Below are positions 12,339 through 57,297 of a DNA stretch of 64,000 nt, one piece after another. Both the position numbers and the translations under genes were made by a program. Where the stretch lies: the NCBI RefSeq assembly GCF_030384885.1, contig NZ_CP128613.1; one strand, 5' to 3'. The notes beneath the pieces were generated by a model. It did not search any database, was not told where the DNA came from, and saw only the letters and a list, made by a program, of their open reading frames with translations. Source of the DNA: Escherichia coli. Its GTDB lineage: Bacteria > Pseudomonadota > Gammaproteobacteria > Enterobacterales > Enterobacteriaceae. Each line of letters opens with the position of its first letter. Within the stretch, counting starts at the first letter, position 1.

Positions 12339-14309
12339 CTACGGATGGCAATGCTTTTCCTCATTCACCCAGATCCGCATTTCGCCTTCACCCCGGTTAG
12401 CCCAGCTAAACCACGGGATAAATGTCAGAGTTTGCGGCTGGCGTTTGGCTGGCGCGCTGTCGTAATGCCACAGCGGTTGCTGCTCTGGATAGCTCTGTTC
12501 ATACCGGTAACCCGGTGCCTGGATTAAGATCTTATGGCTGAACAATCCCTTACCTTCAAATGTCGTAAATGGCGCATCGGTGGGCAGCCACAGATTATGC
12601 AGTGACTCGCCGTTGTCGGCCTGTTCCAGGCAATACACCAGCGGGCCGCGCTGAATCGCCACTTTTCCGGCGACGTGACGCACCAGCGGGTTACCGTAAA
12701 CGCGACGTACCGGCATTGGCAACGTCAGATTCAGCGTGTCGCCCTCCTGCCATTCGCGGGTAATGTGCAAATACCCTTTACGAATATCCTGCTCGACCTC
12801 TTCCCCATTCAATGTAATCTGCGGCTGTGTGCACCAGTCCGGCAGACGTAAAGCCAGCGTATGACGCACCGGCTGGGGCGATTCAACCGCAATTGTCACC
12901 TGTTCCTGCCACGGATAGTTTCCGCTAACCCGCAGACGCAGCGTGCCATTTTCTACCGGCACTTCCATGCTGTTTCCTGCGTAGATGTTGATATACAACG
13001 CATCTTCACGCGGCGTGTAGAGATAATGACCAATCGAGGTTAGCACGCGGGCGATATTTGGCGGACAACAAGCGCAACCAAACCAACGCTGGCGGATCGG
13101 CTTAACGTGATCGTAGATATGGTTGAATTTCAGCGATTTTGGATGTACTTCCAGCGGATTCACATAGAAGAAATGTTTGCCATCCAGCGCCATGCCGCCG
13201 AGCACGGTGTTGTACAGTGCGCGCTCCATCACATCGGCATAGTGACTGTCGCCTTCCATTTCCAGCATTCGCCGGGCGAACATCATCAGGCCGATGGAAG
13301 CACAGCTTTCGGCGTATACCGTGTCATTCGGCAGATCGTAATCGCTGCTGAACGCTTCGCCGCTGCTTTGTGAGCCAATGCCGCCGGTAATATATAACTG
13401 ACGCTGGGCCATATTGTTCCACAGCCGCAGGCAGTCCTGACGCTTGCTTTCATCGTGACTTAAACGCGCGAGATGCGCGACGCCGGTCATCAGGTAGACA
13501 AAACGTACCGCGTGACCAATGGCGGTTTGCTGCTGTGCGATGGGCAAATGTGCCTGGCTGTAGGCTTTGTCTTTCACCATCCACGCCGGGCCGTAGGTGT
13601 GCCAGTGCGAGGTCTGTCCGCGCTTTTCATATTCCTGGTCGTAATAGTGCGGTTGCGCACCACGCTGTTCGACAAAATAGTTCGTCAGCGCCAGGTAGCG
13701 CGGCTCTTCGGTCACTTCATACAGGCGCATTAGTGCCAGTTCAATTTCCGGGTGACCAGGATAACCGTGTAACTTACTTTCACCTGGACCAAATACGCTG
13801 TCGATATGATCGGCCAGACGGCAAACCACTTCCAGCAAGCGCCGCTTGCCCGTGGCCTGGAAGAAGGCGACTCCGGCTTCAATCAGATGACCGGCGCAGT
13901 AAAGTTCATGACACTCCGCCAGATTGCTCCAGCGTTCTTCGGGCGCTTTTACCGTAAAGTAAGTATTGAGATAGCCATCTTCGCACTGGGCGGAAGCGAC
14001 CAGTTCGATTACCTCGTCAGCAGTTTTTTCCAGTTCGGCATCCGGCTTCTGGCACAGCGACCAGGCTACCGCTTCCAGCCATTTGGCGACGTCGCTGTCC
14101 TGAAACACCATCCCGTAAAATTCACCGTCTTGCAGTCCTGCGGCAATGCGAAAGTTTTCAATCGCATGGCTGGGTTCCGCTTCTGGGATACGATCGTTCA
14201 AGGCATCCCACTGATAAGGAATCACCACGTCGCGGACCAGTTGTTGGTACTGACCGAGGAACGGATCGCTGACCGTCAGTTTATGCAGATCGACTTCCGA
14301 AATGTTCAT
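12339..14309 (-). CDS. Glycoside hydrolase family 127 (DUF1680; beta-L-arabinofuranosidase-like)
   Basis: Start chosen at ATG 14309 (MNISEVDL) with AAGGAG RBS, about 656 aa; contains E-S-C (codons near 13298-13310) and C-A-C-C (near 13065-13076) matching the Zn/Cys catalytic motifs of GH127; 10 bp after the transporter stop. Confidence 0.8.
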   Translation of the reverse strand: MNISEVDLHKLTVSDPFLGQYQQLVRDVVIPYQWDALNDRIPEAEPSHAIENFRIAAGLQDGEFYGMVFQDSDVAKWLEAVAWSLCQKPDAELEKTADEVIELVASAQCEDGYLNTYFTVKAPEERWSNLAECHELYCAGHLIEAGVAFFQATGKRRLLEVVCRLADHIDSVFGPGESKLHGYPGHPEIELALMRLYEVTEEPRYLALTNYFVEQRGAQPHYYDQEYEKRGQTSHWHTYGPAWMVKDKAYSQAHLPIAQQQTAIGHAVRFVYLMTGVAHLARLSHDESKRQDCLRLWNNMAQRQLYITGGIGSQSSGEAFSSDYDLPNDTVYAESCASIGLMMFARRMLEMEGDSHYADVMERALYNTVLGGMALDGKHFFYVNPLEVHPKSLKFNHIYDHVKPIRQRWFGCACCPPNIARVLTSIGHYLYTPREDALYINIYAGNSMEVPVENGTLRLRVSGNYPWQEQVTIAVESPQPVRHTLALRLPDWCTQPQITLNGEEVEQDIRKGYLHITREWQEGDTLNLTLPMPVRRVYGNPLVRHVAGKVAIQRGPLVYCLEQADNGESLHNLWLPTDAPFTTFEGKGLFSHKILIQAPGYRYEQSYPEQQPLWHYDSAPAKRQPQTLTFIPWFSWANRGEGEMRIWVNEEKHCHP

Positions 14310-14319
14310 CTTGTGCTCC

Positions 14320-15720
14320 TTAAGGCTGTACATGACGCTGACGCAGGTCGCTAGCAATGCGTGACATCATAGGGTTATTGAGTTTGCAAAAGCGGATCGC
14401 CATCGCCAGCAGCAGGTGGAACAGCGCAGGCAGCAATGTTTCCATCGCCGCGATCCCGCCAAGCGAACTGGCGGTCTGGTTTTCCACGCCTGGCTGGTAG
14501 GCGACAAAAATAAACAGCAGGCTGATGATCCCGGCGCTGGAGGCCCAGGCCAGCTTGATGAAAAACAGATTGAAGGCGAAGTTCATGCCGGAAGAACGTA
14601 CGCGGGTTTTCCACTCGCCGTAGTCATCGGCAAAGGCCATCAATGAGAAGTGCAATGGCAATGTGAAGCCAAGAATCACGCCATTACCAAGGATCACCGC
14701 CAGCCACAGCGTTTGATAAGCCGGGCCAGAAGGCAGGAACCACATCAACACCGCCAGCGCGGCGAGGAGCAGGTTGGTGTAGTAGTAAATTTTGACGGTA
14801 TCGAAACGTCGCGTTAACGGGCTGACAATCACCGAGCCGATAATGGAGGCGAAGGTGACCATAGTGAAGAACAGCGACGTGTAGCCCGTACTGCCTTGTA
14901 AGACGTAGGTAATGAAGTACATATACCCACCGCCGCGAATATTAAAGACGTTAATCAGCAGGAAAGACATGACCAGCATCAGCAGCAGTTGGTCGTTGTT
15001 TCGCAGCCCGGCAAGATGTTCGCGCAGGGTAAATTTCCCCATTGTGGAGAGTGGCACCCGTTCACGAACCCAGAAGAAACAGCACAGGAACATCACCACA
15101 GCGATGGCGCACAGCACGCCGACGCCCAGTTGATAGCCGCGCGCGGCATTACCCTGACCGAAGAGATCTACCATCCACGGCAGGCCAACCGAAACCAGAA
15201 ATCCCGCTACGCCGCAGAGAACGAATCGCCAGGACTGGCAGGAGATCACTTCATTGTGGCGGGTGGTCATGGTGTTGATCAGCGCGCAGTACGGCACGTT
15301 GATGGCGGTATAACCGACTGAAAGGAGCAGGTAAGTGCCGAACGCCCAGGCGATTTTTACTCCCATGCTGGCATCTGGCACGGTGAACGTCAGGATGCCG
15401 ATAATGCCGATGGGAATGGCAATCCACAACTGCCACGGACGAAAGCGCCCCCAGCGACTTTGCGTCCGGTCGGCAATGACGCCCATCACCGGGTCGGAGA
15501 TGGCATCAAACACGCGCAGTGCAATAAACAGCGTGCCGACCAGCGCCGGAGTTAAGCCAAAAACGTCGGTGTAGAAAAAGGTGAGAAAGTTCATGATCAG
15601 GCAGGTTATGACGGTGCCGCCAGCGTCACCCAGGCCGTAGCCTATTTTTTCCCGTACAGATAACGCGTCGTCAATTTTACCTTTAGCGATATCAGCGGTA
15701 GTAATCGGTGTAGAGGTCAT
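14320..15720 (-). CDS. GPH-family (glycoside-pentoside-hexuronide) cation symporter, MFS superfamily
   Basis: About 466 aa from ATG 15720 ([16 protein letters not shown]); multi-TM; GPH signature [13 protein letters not shown]; track start at 15735 is TTG. Confidence 0.8.
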
Positions 15721-15945
15721 AGATATTCCTCGCAAATAGAGAGCATTTTTTTGTTTTATTGCAATGACCTGATTAATTTCGCCGTTATCTGGAATATCAA
15801 CAAGGCGAGAAAAGAGTAAAAAAAGGTGACGATTCCGACCTGAATTTAAAAGTGTGAATTGGATCAGGTGAAATTAATGTTTTTGATTAATAATCAAAAG
15901 GTAATGTGTTTAATCATTAATGAATAAGCGGGAAATTACATATCA
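15721..15945. promoter_or_regulatory. AT-rich divergent promoter region between GPH/GH127 operon and AraC gene, with palindromes
   Basis: 225-bp intergenic; palindromes ttttgattaataatcaaaa (15881-15899) and tcattaatga (15914-15923). Confidence 0.45.
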
Positions 15946-16761
15946 ATGCTCGAATTATCCATGACGTTACCGATTAAAGTGCAAAATGGTGGATTATTTA
16001 TTTCCCGTGGCGTAGGGAGGCATCCGGCAAGGCGGCTGGAGTCATGGGAAATTATCTTTGTCGAAAAAGGTCGATTAGCGATTCAGGAAGAAGAGCGGAT
16101 ATTTCTGGTCGATGCGGGAGAGAGTTTATTACTCTGGCCGAACCGACAGCATGTTGGGGTAGAGGATTTTCCCGCCGATCTCAAATTTTACTGGCTGCAT
16201 TTTGAGGTTAAAGCGCCGGATAGCGACCCGCGCTGGCTCACTCATCTTAGCGTGCCGCAACAAACGAAGGTTGCCGATCCGCAGGCGCTGGTGGCCCTGT
16301 TTCGCCAGTTCTTAAGCGAACAGGAAAAGCATCAACGCACTCCGGCGCTGGAGTTTATTGTGCTGCTGATTTTGCAGCAACTCACCCGTGACGCGCGTCT
16401 TGATGAACAGGCCGATGCCGCAGGTACCACGCTTGCCTGGAAAGCGCAGAAACTGATCCGCACGCAATATCATCGCCCGCTTTCCACTGCGCTTTTAGCC
16501 CGCGAGCTGTACTGCAATGCCGATTATCTTGGGCGCGTCTATCGGCGGGTGTTTCATCTGACGTTAACAGAAGCAATCCACCGCCAGCGGGTGCGCGAAG
16601 CCGAAAAGCTGTTAATTAGCGACGCGCGCTCGCTCACGGAAGTGGCGGCGTTGTGCGGGTTTAATGACGTTGGCTATTTCCGGCAGATTTTTCGCAAACA
16701 CACCGGATTAACGCCAGCTGCGTGGAAGCGACGTTACAGCAAGGAACATATCAATTCGTAG
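15946..16761 (+). CDS. AraC/XylS-family transcriptional regulator
   Basis: 271-aa ORF; C-terminal dual HTH (LTEVAALCGFNDVGYFRQIFRKHTGLTPAAWK); N-terminal sugar-binding-type domain. Confidence 0.8.
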   Translation: MLELSMTLPIKVQNGGLFISRGVGRHPARRLESWEIIFVEKGRLAIQEEERIFLVDAGESLLLWPNRQHVGVEDFPADLKFYWLHFEVKAPDSDPRWLTHLSVPQQTKVADPQALVALFRQFLSEQEKHQRTPALEFIVLLILQQLTRDARLDEQADAAGTTLAWKAQKLIRTQYHRPLSTALLARELYCNADYLGRVYRRVFHLTLTEAIHRQRVREAEKLLISDARSLTEVAALCGFNDVGYFRQIFRKHTGLTPAAWKRRYSKEHINS

Positions 16762-43088: not shown

Positions 43089-45158
43089 ATGTCTGAGAAA
43101 ACTTTTCTGGTGGAAATCGGCACTGAAGAGCTGCCACCAAAAGCACTGCGCAGCCTGGCTGAGTCCTTTGCTGCGAACTTTACTGCGGAGCTGGATAACG
43201 CTGGCCTCGCACACGGCACCGTTCAATGGTTTGCTGCTCCGCGTCGTCTGGCGCTGAAAGTAGCTAACCTGGCGGAAGCGCAACCGGATCGTGAAATCGA
43301 AAAACGTGGCCCGGCAATTGCTCAGGCGTTCGATGCTGAAGGTAAACCGAGTAAAGCGGCAGAAGGTTGGGCGCGTGGTTGCGGTATTACCGTTGACCAG
43401 GCTGAGCGTCTGACTACCGATAAAGGCGAATGGCTGCTGTATCGCGCCCACGTGAAGGGCGAAAGCACTGAAGCACTGCTGCCGAATATGGTCGCCACTT
43501 CGCTGGCGAAGCTGCCGATCCCGAAACTGATGCGTTGGGGCGCAAGCGACGTGCACTTCGTGCGTCCGGTTCACACCGTGACCCTGCTGCTGGGCGACAA
43601 AGTCATTCCGGCAACCATTCTGGGCATTCAGTCCGATCGCGTGATTCGCGGCCACCGCTTTATGGGCGAGCCGGAATTTACTATCGACAATGCCGATCAG
43701 TATCCGGAAATTCTGCGCGAGCGCGGGAAAGTTATCGCCGATTACGAAGAACGTAAGGCGAAGATTAAAGCCGATGCCGAAGAAGCCGCGCGTAAGATTG
43801 GCGGTAACGCTGACTTAAGCGAAAGCCTGTTGGAAGAAGTCGCTTCGCTGGTGGAATGGCCGGTTGTGCTGACCGCAAAATTCGAAGAGAAATTCCTCGC
43901 GGTGCCGTCTGAAGCGCTGGTTTACACCATGAAAGGTGACCAGAAATACTTCCCGGTGTATGCGAACGACGGCAAACTGCTGCCGAACTTTATCTTCGTT
44001 GCCAATATCGAATCGAAAGATCCGCAGCAAATTATCTCTGGTAACGAGAAAGTCGTTCGTCCACGTCTGGCGGATGCCGAGTTCTTCTTCAACACCGACC
44101 GTAAAAAACGTCTGGAAGATAATCTGCCGCGCCTGCAAACCGTGTTGTTCCAGCAACAGCTGGGTACACTACGCGACAAAACTGACCGCATCCAGGCGCT
44201 GGCTGGCTGGATTGCTGAACAGATTGGCGCTGACGTTAACCACGCAACCCGTGCGGGCCTGCTGTCTAAGTGTGACCTGATGACTAACATGGTCTTCGAG
44301 TTCACCGACACTCAGGGCGTTATGGGTATGCACTACGCGCGTCACGATGGTGAAGCGGAAGATGTCGCAGTGGCGCTGAACGAGCAGTATCAGCCGCGCT
44401 TTGCCGGTGATGACCTGCCGTCTAACCCGGTAGCCTGTGCGCTGGCGATAGCTGACAAGATGGATACTCTGGCGGGTATCTTCGGTATCGGCCAGCATCC
44501 GAAAGGCGACAAAGACCCGTTTGCGTTGCGTCGTGCCGCACTTGGCGTGCTGCGTATTATCGTTGAGAAGAACCTCAATCTTGACCTGCAAACCCTGACC
44601 GAAGAAGCAGTGCGTCTGTATGGCGATAAGCTGACTAATGCCAACGTGGTTGATGATGTTATCGACTTTATGCTCGGTCGCTTCCGCGCCTGGTATCAGG
44701 ACGAAGGTTACACCGTTGACACCATCCAGGCGGTACTGGCGCGTCGTCCGACTCGTCCGGCTGATTTCGATGCCCGAATGAAAGCGGTATCGCACTTCCG
44801 TACCCTGGATGCAGCTGCAGCACTGGCGGCGGCGAACAAGCGTGTATCTAACATTCTGGCGAAATCTGACGAAGTGCTGAGCGACCGCGTGAATGCCTCT
44901 ACTCTGAAAGAGCCGGAAGAAATTAAACTGGCGATGCAGGTTGTGGTGCTACGTGACAAGCTAGAGCCGTACTTTGCTGAAGGTCGTTACCAGGATGCGC
45001 TGGTCGAACTGGCTGAGCTGCGTGAACCGGTTGATGCCTTCTTCGATAAAGTGATGGTCATGGTTGATGACAAAGAATTGCGAATCAACCGTCTTACCAT
45101 GCTGGAGAAACTGCGCGAATTATTCCTGCGAGTTGCGGATATTTCGCTGTTGCAGTAA
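43089..45158 (+). CDS. glyS: Glycine--tRNA ligase beta subunit
   Basis: 689-aa ORF, recognised. Confidence 0.95.
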
Positions 45159-45174
45159 TAACGTCGTTATTAAA

Positions 45175-55605: not shown

Positions 55606-57297
55606 ATGAGATACATCAAATCGATTACACAGCAGAAGCTGAGCTTTTTGCTTGCAATCTATATTGGCCTTTTTATGAATGGCGCGGTTTTTTACCGCCG
55701 CTTCGGCAGCTATGCGCACGATTTTACCGTCTGGAAAGGCGTTTCTGCTGTTGTTGAACTGGTCGCTACCGTACTGGTGACCTTCTTTTTACTGCGTCTG
55801 CTTTCGCTGTTTGGCCGCCGCAGCTGGCGAATTCTGGCATCGCTGGTGGTGCTCTTTTCTGCAGGTGCCAGCTATTACATGACTTTCCTTAATGTGGTCA
55901 TTGGTTATGGCATCATCGCATCCGTCATGACCACCGATATCGACCTGTCAAAAGAAGTTGTTGGTCTGAACTTTATTCTCTGGTTAATCGCCGTAAGCGC
56001 ATTGCCTCTTATCCTTATCTGGAATAACCGCTGTCGCTACACCTTGCTCCGACAACTGCGAACCCCAGGGCAACGTATTCGGAGTCTGGCGGTCGTCGTA
56101 CTGGCAGGTATTATGGTTTGGGCACCGATTCGTTTGCTGGATATCCAGCAGAAGAAAGTGGAGAGGGCGACAGGTGTTGATTTGCCGAGTTATGGTGGCG
56201 TTGTCGCGAACTCTTATCTGCCATCAAACTGGCTTTCGGCGTTAGGTCTTTATGCCTGGGCGCGGGTCGATGAATCTTCCGATAACAATTCTCTCCTTAA
56301 CCCTGCGAAGAAGTTTACGTACCAGGCTCCACAAAACGTTGATGATACATATGTCGTTTTCATTATTGGTGAAACCACGCGCTGGGATCATATGGGCATT
56401 TTCGGCTATGAACGCAATACCACACCGAAACTGGCTCAGGAGAAAAATCTGGCGGCGTTTCGTGGCTATTCTTGTGACACGGCGACCAAACTTTCTCTGC
56501 GTTGCATGTTTGTGCGTCAGGGTGGAGCAGAAGATAATCCGCAGCGCACATTAAAAGAACAGAACATTTTCGCGGTATTGAAGCAGTTAGGATTCAGTTC
56601 TGATCTCTACGCTATGCAAAGCGAAATGTGGTTCTACAGCAATACGATGGCGGACAATATTGCTTATCGTGAGCAGATTGGTGCGGAACCGCGTAACCGC
56701 GGCAAGCCGGTAGATGATATGTTGCTGGTAGACGAAATGCAGCAATCGCTGGGGCGTAACCCGGATGGTAAGCATCTGATCATTCTGCATACCAAGGGGT
56801 CGCACTTTAACTACACCCAGCGTTACCCGCGCAGCTTTGCGCAGTGGAAGCCAGAATGTATTGGTGTTGATAGCGGCTGTACCAAAGCGCAGATGATCAA
56901 CTCCTACGACAACTCGGTGACCTATGTGGATCACTTTATTTCCAGCGTGATTGATCAGGTTCGCGATAAGAAAGCGATTGTGTTCTACGCAGCTGACCAC
57001 GGTGAGTCAATTAATGAACGCGAGCACCTGCACGGCACACCGCGTGAACTGGCACCGCCGGAGCAGTTCCGCGTACCGATGATGGTCTGGATGTCGGATA
57101 AATATCTGGAAAATCCAGCCAACGCGCAGGCATTTGCGCAGCTGAAAAAAGAAGCCGACATGAAAGTGCCACGCCGTCACGTAGAGCTGTACGACACCAT
57201 CATGGGTTGTCTTGGCTATACTTCACCGGACGGTGGTATTAACGAAAACAACAACTGGTGCCACATCCCGCAGGCAAAAGAGGCAGCGGCTAACTAA
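55606..57297 (+). CDS. eptB: Kdo(2)-lipid A phosphoethanolamine transferase
   Basis: Start at ATG 55606 ([10 protein letters not shown]) giving 563 aa; N-terminal TM domain plus sulfatase-like domain. Confidence 0.9.

Follow-up and report, generated by a model that had tools for sequence, protein, structure and literature searches.

The nearest described counterparts of the control region analysed here are those of araC-araBAD (P_C / P_BAD) and melR-melAB, in which an AraC-family regulator is transcribed divergently from a catabolic operon, the latter coding for a glycosidase and a GPH-family symporter. The CRP site of P_BAD lies at about -93.5, and melR is transcribed from a class II-type CRP-dependent promoter. 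In the layout shared by P_BAD and P_Rha the half-sites of the activator overlap the -35 element and CRP is bound upstream (PMC11983282). CRP at -40.5 is in an experimentally activating position (PMC12825309); our literature search on deoP2 and -40.5 found nothing. An 18-bp symmetric overlap of -10 elements occurs commonly in E. coli, with an enrichment in DNA that was acquired horizontally (Warman et al., bioRxiv 10.1101/2020.01.31.928960).

The locus lies in a 64,000-nucleotide stretch of Escherichia coli DNA, which we call the window. An earlier note on this DNA placed a 225-bp AT-rich spacer at 15721-15945, between a transporter/GH127 operon and an AraC gene, and proposed two palindromes and a further GATTAAT copy within it as candidate binding sites for a regulator or a global factor. 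Its description of the spacer is correct: the G+C content is 31% compared to 51% in the window, and the spacer is bounded by two divergent start codons (15720 on the minus strand and 15946 on the plus strand). The flanking genes are as follows.

12339..14309, minus strand: GH127 glycoside hydrolase gene, second gene of the operon (Pfam and RefSeq annotation)
14320..15720, minus strand: gene for a GPH-family (MFS_2) sugar:cation symporter, first gene of the operon (Pfam MFS_2, E 2.7e-73; NCBIfam GPH/YagG-like)
15946..16761, plus strand: AraC-family regulator gene, ATG at 15946 (Pfam AraC_binding, HTH_18 and HTH_AraC)

The ATG of the transporter gene is preceded by GAGGAA on the minus strand. 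The GH127 product carries the catalytic, middle and C-terminal domains of its family (Pfam GH127, E 1.6e-111), but its top NCBIfam match, aceric acid hydrolase, falls far under the cut-off of that family. The regulator combines a cupin ligand domain with two helix-turn-helix motifs and is AraC-like over its full length. It is not an AraC ortholog, since its closest NCBIfam model, AraC, scores 61 bits where the cut-off is 208. Together the three genes make up an accessory insert of the E. coli chromosome, with yiaT on one side and the sgbE/araD-like end of the yiaK-S operon on the other. Of 5426 complete E. coli genomes, 2323 (43%) carry the insert, once each and never on a plasmid; O157:H7 has it, and about 80 other Enterobacterales species have the module as well. 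Literature searches found no published characterisation of it. In E. coli O157:H7 MB9-1 (L082 4043-4183) the yiaK-sgbE operon that lies downstream of the AraC-family gene in the window is deleted, and only a fragment of the IclR-type gene yiaJ adjoins the module. A few orthologous loci (L062, L073 and L081) look degraded, namely that of Kosakonia arachidis, which is without a GH127 match, and those of Buttiauxella massiliensis and Kluyvera genomosp. 3, where the transporter or regulator matches are truncated.

To compare orthologous spacers we used a profile built from 19 regulator homologs, which led to 80 loci in different Enterobacterales species. In 77 of these a divergent transporter-GH127 operon and a regulator gene flank a spacer of 215-383 bp. 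The alignment set comprised 78 spacers, 77 from other species plus that of the window, and was anchored on one invariant motif. Its main features, together with the assignments that we propose for some of them, are listed here in window coordinates.

15721..15765, minus strand: probable leader of the transporter mRNA, which varies in sequence and length between species
15766..15782, minus strand: block a, consensus ACCTGATTAATTCTGC, of high information content, which holds the third GATTAAT copy
15798..15805, minus strand: block b, CAACAAGG, more than 90% conserved, reading TTGTTG on the minus strand 16 bp upstream of the block-a hexamer
15807..15843: blocks c and d, consensus GGGAAAAGTATAAAAAGATGACGATTCCGACCTGA (…AAGTATAAAAAG.TGACGATTCCGACCTGA), near-invariant, the strongest footprint of the spacer
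15849-15868: CRP-like site AAAnTGTGA-N6-TCAGG, with its core at 15853-15868 (centre 15860.5) matching at 8 of 10 positions
15887-15897, plus strand: conserved asymmetric core TTAATAATCAA (block f), constrained more weakly than blocks a-e
15901..15903, plus strand: predicted transcription start zone of the regulator gene, 7-9 nt after T15894

All 78 spacers are gap-free from 15756 to the regulator ATG, and the blocks keep nearly fixed distances to each other: 22 bp from a to b (63 of 63 spacers), 16 bp from b to c (65 of 65), 17 bp from c to d (69 of 69) and 22 bp from block d to TGTGA (65 of 69). The distance from the transporter ATG to block a varies from 45 to 91 bp among 69 species. Two stretches, 15869-15883 and 15898-15927, are at the neutral background, and the Shine-Dalgarno region AGCGGGAAA is constrained across the orthologs. 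The strongest footprints, 15766-15782, 15798-15805 and 15807-15843, lie outside the palindromes and probably correspond to the core promoter of the transporter gene and the operators of the regulator. From 15776 to 15945, 170 bp in all, about 65-78 species show zero indels, the unconserved 15898-15927 included. Length is here constrained while sequence is not, possibly owing to helical phasing or looping.

Other kinds of element were looked for as well. An Rfam scan of 15600-16050 with E-values up to 1 gave no RNA family and a terminator scan in E. coli gave none. A 5-codon mini-ORF on the plus strand at 15826-15843 (ATG/GTG ACG ATT CCG ACC TGA) was rejected, its start codon being unconserved (AGG, ATA or GTA in several species). 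Thus no RNA family, terminator or conserved small ORF accounts for any of the blocks. A search near the module for extra copies of the conserved blocks, which could have marked possible regulon members, found none.

The palindromes themselves exist as claimed. The 19-bp palindrome at 15881-15899, TTTTGATTAATAATCAAAA, has perfect 9-bp arms around A15890 (9+1+9), the 10-bp palindrome at 15914-15923, TCATTAATGA, is a perfect 5+5, and the further GATTAAT copy is at 15771-15777. The longer 8-mer TGATTAAT is present twice (15770-15777 and 15884-15891), although the repeat search flags 8-mers with two copies as frequent chance matches. When the spacer was shuffled 20,000 times with its dinucleotides preserved, arms of at least 9 (spacer 0-1) arose in 0.6% of the shuffles, which is a P of about 0.006 per spacer, and the 19-bp palindrome is the longest of its kind in the 64-kb window. 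Rare as a 9+1+9 palindrome is for one spacer, some are nevertheless expected across the few thousand intergenic regions of a genome. The 10-bp palindrome is at chance level because arms of at least 5 appear in 58% of the same shuffles. Further long perfect palindromes of the window are TAATAACGTCGTTATTA at 45156-45172 (8+1+8), TGCTGGATATCCAGCA at 56135-56150 (8+8) and GGCACAGCTGCTGTGCC at 2251-2267 (8+1+8). A 23-nt direct repeat in the spacer (15875-15897 and 15902-15924, 78% identical) was rejected as its second copy is unconserved and polymorphic.

Whether the dyad is conserved depends on where one looks. The 19-bp palindrome is unchanged in seven sampled E. coli strains, in E. whittamii and also in C. 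amalonaticus, and 2133 of 2299 E. coli genomes (93%) have the same sequence over the surrounding 50 bp. This identity within E. coli says nothing on constraint, because the 50-bp region of the 10-bp palindrome and leader, which is not constrained, is equally identical (91% of the genomes). Across orthologs the symmetry falls apart. Among the 60-61 core-bearing spacers, every position from A15889 to A15896 is 100% conserved, T15894, C15895 and A15896 included, but their partners in the left arm are not: G15885 is found in 25% (C is commoner) against 100% for C15895, and A15886 in 52% against 100% for T15894. Perfect arms of at least 6 are found in 12 of 63 spacers, and most spacers have arms of 1-4. 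The GA dinucleotide that completes the dyad is observed 12 times where column frequencies predict 8.4, the arms pair in 77.1% of cells against 75.5% in shuffles, with no covariation, and the G-C pair of the arms forms in 15 of 51 sequences. The dyad symmetry is thus present in E. coli, but across the orthologs we found neither conservation of both arms nor covariation between them. Because the arms are unequal, GA is near expectation and covariation is absent, it appears that selection keeps the asymmetric 11-mer TTAATAATCAA and not the dyad. The 10-bp palindrome, besides being at chance in shuffles, is polymorphic: E. whittamii and other strains of E. coli read TTACTAATGA, TTATTAATGA or TCTTCACCAG at this place, and its conservation in other species (18-49%) does not stand out from the neutral baseline of 36%. 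We judge it to be a chance feature of what would be the untranslated leader of the regulator gene.

The conserved core has the properties expected of a promoter element for the regulator gene. AATAAT at 15889-15894 shares five of six bases with the -10 hexamer, among them the critical second-position A and sixth-position T, and 78% of species have it at this point of the alignment. A generic promoter scan of the Enterobacter mori ortholog picked the same hexamer as a -10. AATAATC is present in 63 of the 78 spacers, in 60 of which it begins 36 bp past the first base of TGTGA, and AATAAT lies 56-58 bp ahead of the regulator ATG. A15903, in the predicted start zone, is invariant in 61 of 61 spacers. 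We therefore read TTAATAATCAA as the selected element, with AATAAT as the likely -10 of a regulator promoter that would have no usable -35 (the -35 position reads GGTGAA). Promoter prediction, a check that the earlier note had suggested, returned no consensus sigma-70 promoter on either strand of the E. coli spacer, which is expected if the promoters are activator-dependent. In 15 distant species (Buttiauxella, Cedecea, Atlantibacter, Hafnia and Mangrovibacter; loci L049, L063, L066, L067, L069-L071, L073, L076-L079 and others) blocks a-e are kept without TTAATAATCAA, and TACACT is found about 19 bp further downstream. This replacement fits a relocatable promoter element that serves the regulator gene alone, unlike an operator of the regulator.

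The motif scan for CRP sites, also suggested earlier, did yield a candidate, but at 15849-15868 and so outside both palindromes, and its 8/10 core is at chance level on its own (P about 0.11 per spacer). The AAA, TGTGA and GATC of block e (AAAnTGTGA-N4-GATC, 15849-15866) are each more than 90% conserved in the 78 species, with only GATC kept in the second half of the CRP-like site. The conserved GATC at 15862-15865 is also a Dam methylation site. TGTGA-N6-TCAGG ends 20 bp upstream of the proposed -10. With a start at 15901-15903 its centre would lie between about -40.5 and -42.5, where CRP would activate as at class II promoters. The canonical gap, as measured at melR in K-12, is 21 bp, where CATAAT follows the CRP-like core.

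On the other side of the spacer, block a would be the -10 and start region of the transporter promoter. The -10-like hexamer on the minus strand (15781->15776) reads CAGAAT or CAAAAT in 95% of the 78 species, and the length-variable DNA starts directly downstream of it. The GATTAAT copy, regarded earlier as a further operator copy, would then lie at -1 to -8; it does sit within a conserved block, but one that reads as a promoter. TTGTTG of block b is a candidate -35 for this promoter. A second-ranked alternative uses TATACT on the minus strand (15820->15815), a hexamer that 83% of species have. It is ranked second because the clade of Escherichia, C. amalonaticus and Salmonella reads TTTACT and lacks the key A. 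The strain of the window has a rare allele at 15733-15797, which departs from the allele of most E. coli by about 10 differences, and its spacer is matched at 99% identity or more over the spacer in only 3 of 2321 genomes. Within this allele TC replaces CT at 15779-15780 and turns the conserved CAGAAT into a rare CGAAAT, a variant that may weaken the transporter promoter. The leaders of many Klebsiella, Raoultella, Citrobacter, Pantoea and Kosakonia carry a GC-rich hairpin between the MFS start and block a (L041, L044, L052, L056, L062, L068 and others), for example CCCGCTGAAGTGCGGG, which E. coli does not have.

The near-invariant 47-bp block at 15797-15843 would lie at about -28 to -74 of this promoter, where activators of the AraC/RhaS type bind. 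Within it, blocks c and d, at about -38 to -74 of the putative start, are most probably the binding region of the AraC-family regulator. The sequence GATTCCGAC occurs in 57 module spacers and just once elsewhere in about 750 kb. We place the likely operators of the regulator at 15797-15843 because the layout of the blocks matches that of P_BAD and P_Rha. This region, like the CRP-like site, is outside the palindromes. Comparison of the position weight matrices of the conserved blocks with themselves, the 47-bp block included, gave no convincing direct or inverted half-site repeat. A match resembling AraC I1 near 15741-15757 was rejected, as it lies in the unconserved leader and has no TCCATA box. 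Counted from the transporter promoter, the one CRP-like site would lie at about -91.5.

Taking these observations together, we favor, at a probability of roughly 0.55, the reading that the spacer is a compact AraC plus CRP control region of fixed spacing, in which the 19-bp palindrome lies over the -10 region of the regulator gene and is not an operator. The protein-DNA assignments and both transcription starts are inferred here from conservation and geometry. The symmetry itself would have a simple origin. AT-rich -10 elements are intrinsically pseudo-symmetric, and the hexamers on the two strands would pair in the 18-bp bidirectional arrangement. In Escherichia the unconstrained flanking bases (TTTTGA on the left and AA on the right) would then happen to complete a perfect palindrome, and the longer dyad of Escherichia, C. 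amalonaticus and scattered lineages would come from a T-rich left flank, with its centre 2 bp further left. Some observations count against this reading. At 11 bp the conserved core exceeds the length of a -10 hexamer and may overlap a protein site; the gap from the CRP-like core to the hexamer is 1 bp short of the canonical distance; the CRP core is not significant alone and its second half keeps only GATC; and the 9+1+9 palindrome is improbable by chance and invariant in E. coli. On the transporter side, the well-conserved TATACT hexamer would give a different promoter, and the 47-bp block has no half-site repeat.

The comparison with the described systems follows the same lines. As at araC-araBAD, a cupin-plus-HTH regulator of the AraC family diverges from a catabolic operon, a conserved block is present where the activator half-sites overlap the -35, both core promoters look weak and a CRP-type site lies further upstream, at about -91.5 in this spacer. 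Unlike there, the regulator is not an AraC ortholog, the conserved block has neither a half-site of the TAGC-N7-TCCATA type nor a direct repeat, the 225-bp region has no room for the 210-bp O2-I1 loop, and the single CRP-like site is apparently class II in its placement relative to the regulator gene. With melR-melAB the locus shares an AraC-family regulator divergent from a glycosidase and a GPH-family symporter, but the transporter comes first and the hydrolase, a GH127 enzyme, second, the CRP gap is 20 bp rather than 21, the spacer is shorter, and no MelR-like 18-bp repeats were found in it.

The same evidence bears on what else the 19-bp palindrome could be. The idea that it is a genuine operator, at least in Escherichia, seems unlikely to us. 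A dimeric protein would bind it, either the AraC-family regulator in negative autoregulation or another repressor, and as the palindrome spans -20 to -2 of the proposed regulator promoter, binding would shut the regulator gene off. AraC does repress its own promoter, via araO1, but AraC-type monomers use bipartite half-sites of roughly 17 bp and not 9-bp arms (PMC11983282), and the core has no similarity to blocks b-d, the likeliest binding region of the regulator. The perfect 9+1+9 arms (P about 0.006 per spacer), their invariance in the sampled E. coli, E. whittamii and C. amalonaticus, the recurrence of arms of 6-10 in some Enterobacter, Yokenella, Kosakonia and Pantoea species and a conserved core that exceeds a -10 hexamer all speak for an operator. 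They are countered by a left arm that is not selected (G15885 in 25%, C15895 in 100%), by arms that do not covary, by a GA frequency near the expectation for independent sites, and by an identity within E. coli that is equally high for the unconstrained region of the 10-bp palindrome. The proposal that the palindromes are candidate operators is hence supported in part only: the longer one overlaps an element under purifying selection in a region that is the divergent control region of the module, but an operator role for the palindromes themselves is not supported, as the arms of the longer one are neither both conserved nor covarying and the matches to known regulator consensus sequences are at chance. 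The other half of that proposal, binding by a global factor (the FNR or CRP family, Fur, ArgR, IHF, or H-NS coating of AT-rich acquired DNA), we consider very improbable. H-NS prefers AT-rich acquired DNA and the spacer, at 31% G+C, sits within an accessory module. TTGAT-TAATA-ATCAA in the palindrome also contains two perfect FNR-type half-sites, yet these are 5 bp apart where the FNR box (TTGAT-N4-ATCAA) needs 4, and the left half-site is not conserved in the orthologs. True FNR matches in the spacer reach 7/10 at best, a chance-level value, and the exact 13-mer has no other occurrence in the roughly 750 kb of enterobacterial sequence examined and is thus not a dispersed regulon motif. In a scan of the spacer for the consensus sequences of 15 regulators, which is only indicative, all matches apart from the CRP core were at chance level, and this includes Fur, ArgR, IHF, ArcA, LexA, PurR, NagC, Lrp, Fis, H-NS and FNR at the palindromes.

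The core could instead be a bidirectional promoter that also fires leftward, with GATTAT as the -10 and initiation near 15883, so that the transporter operon would have a transcript with a long leader; the palindrome would then result from selection for symmetry in both directions. We hold this to be rather improbable. The core does resemble the bidirectional promoters described by Warman, Grainger and colleagues: each strand carries a -10-like hexamer (plus, AATAAT; minus, GATTAT at 15895->15890; together in 78% of species), positions 2 and 6 of the two hexamers pair as in the 18-bp configuration (bioRxiv 10.1101/2020.01.31.928960), and their predicted starts are 18 bp apart, in AT-rich, horizontally acquired DNA. 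T15883 would moreover give an A start on the minus strand. The palindrome, though, is centred on 15890, 2 bp off the symmetry centre of the paired hexamers (15892), and the transporter gene has better-placed promoter candidates. CRP lies upstream for the rightward direction only, which is expected to disfavor the opposite one (PMC12825309).

A more ambitious reading, which we regard as quite doubtful, joins a lineage-specific operator over the regulator -10 to a phased nucleoprotein assembly, formed across the Enterobacterales by a new AraC subfamily that senses the substrate of the GH127 enzyme. It rests on the 170 bp without indels, where length is kept and sequence is not, and on the invariant 47-bp block without AraC-like repeat symmetry. 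If it were true, the sensed substrate could be, for example, a plant oligosaccharide of the beta-L-arabinofuranoside type.

Returning to the favored AraC plus CRP reading, the regulator encoded beside the spacer has a ligand domain of the AraC type and a double helix-turn-helix, and the divergent arrangement is kept in about 78 species. On the basis of conservation, fixed spacing and promoter geometry the spacer is best filed, as an uncharacterised member, among the familiar control regions of sugar operons in which an AraC-type activator acts together with CRP. The GH127-AraC-family-GPH module to which it belongs is widespread, being carried by 43% of complete E. coli genomes including O157:H7, and we found no published characterisation of it. 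The 19-bp palindrome would be a case of a statistically rare, perfect palindrome to which an AT-rich -10 region gave rise with no selection on its symmetry. Conspicuous as they are, the palindromes are then poor experimental targets; the operators are likeliest at 15797-15843 and catabolite control is likeliest to act at 15853-15868.
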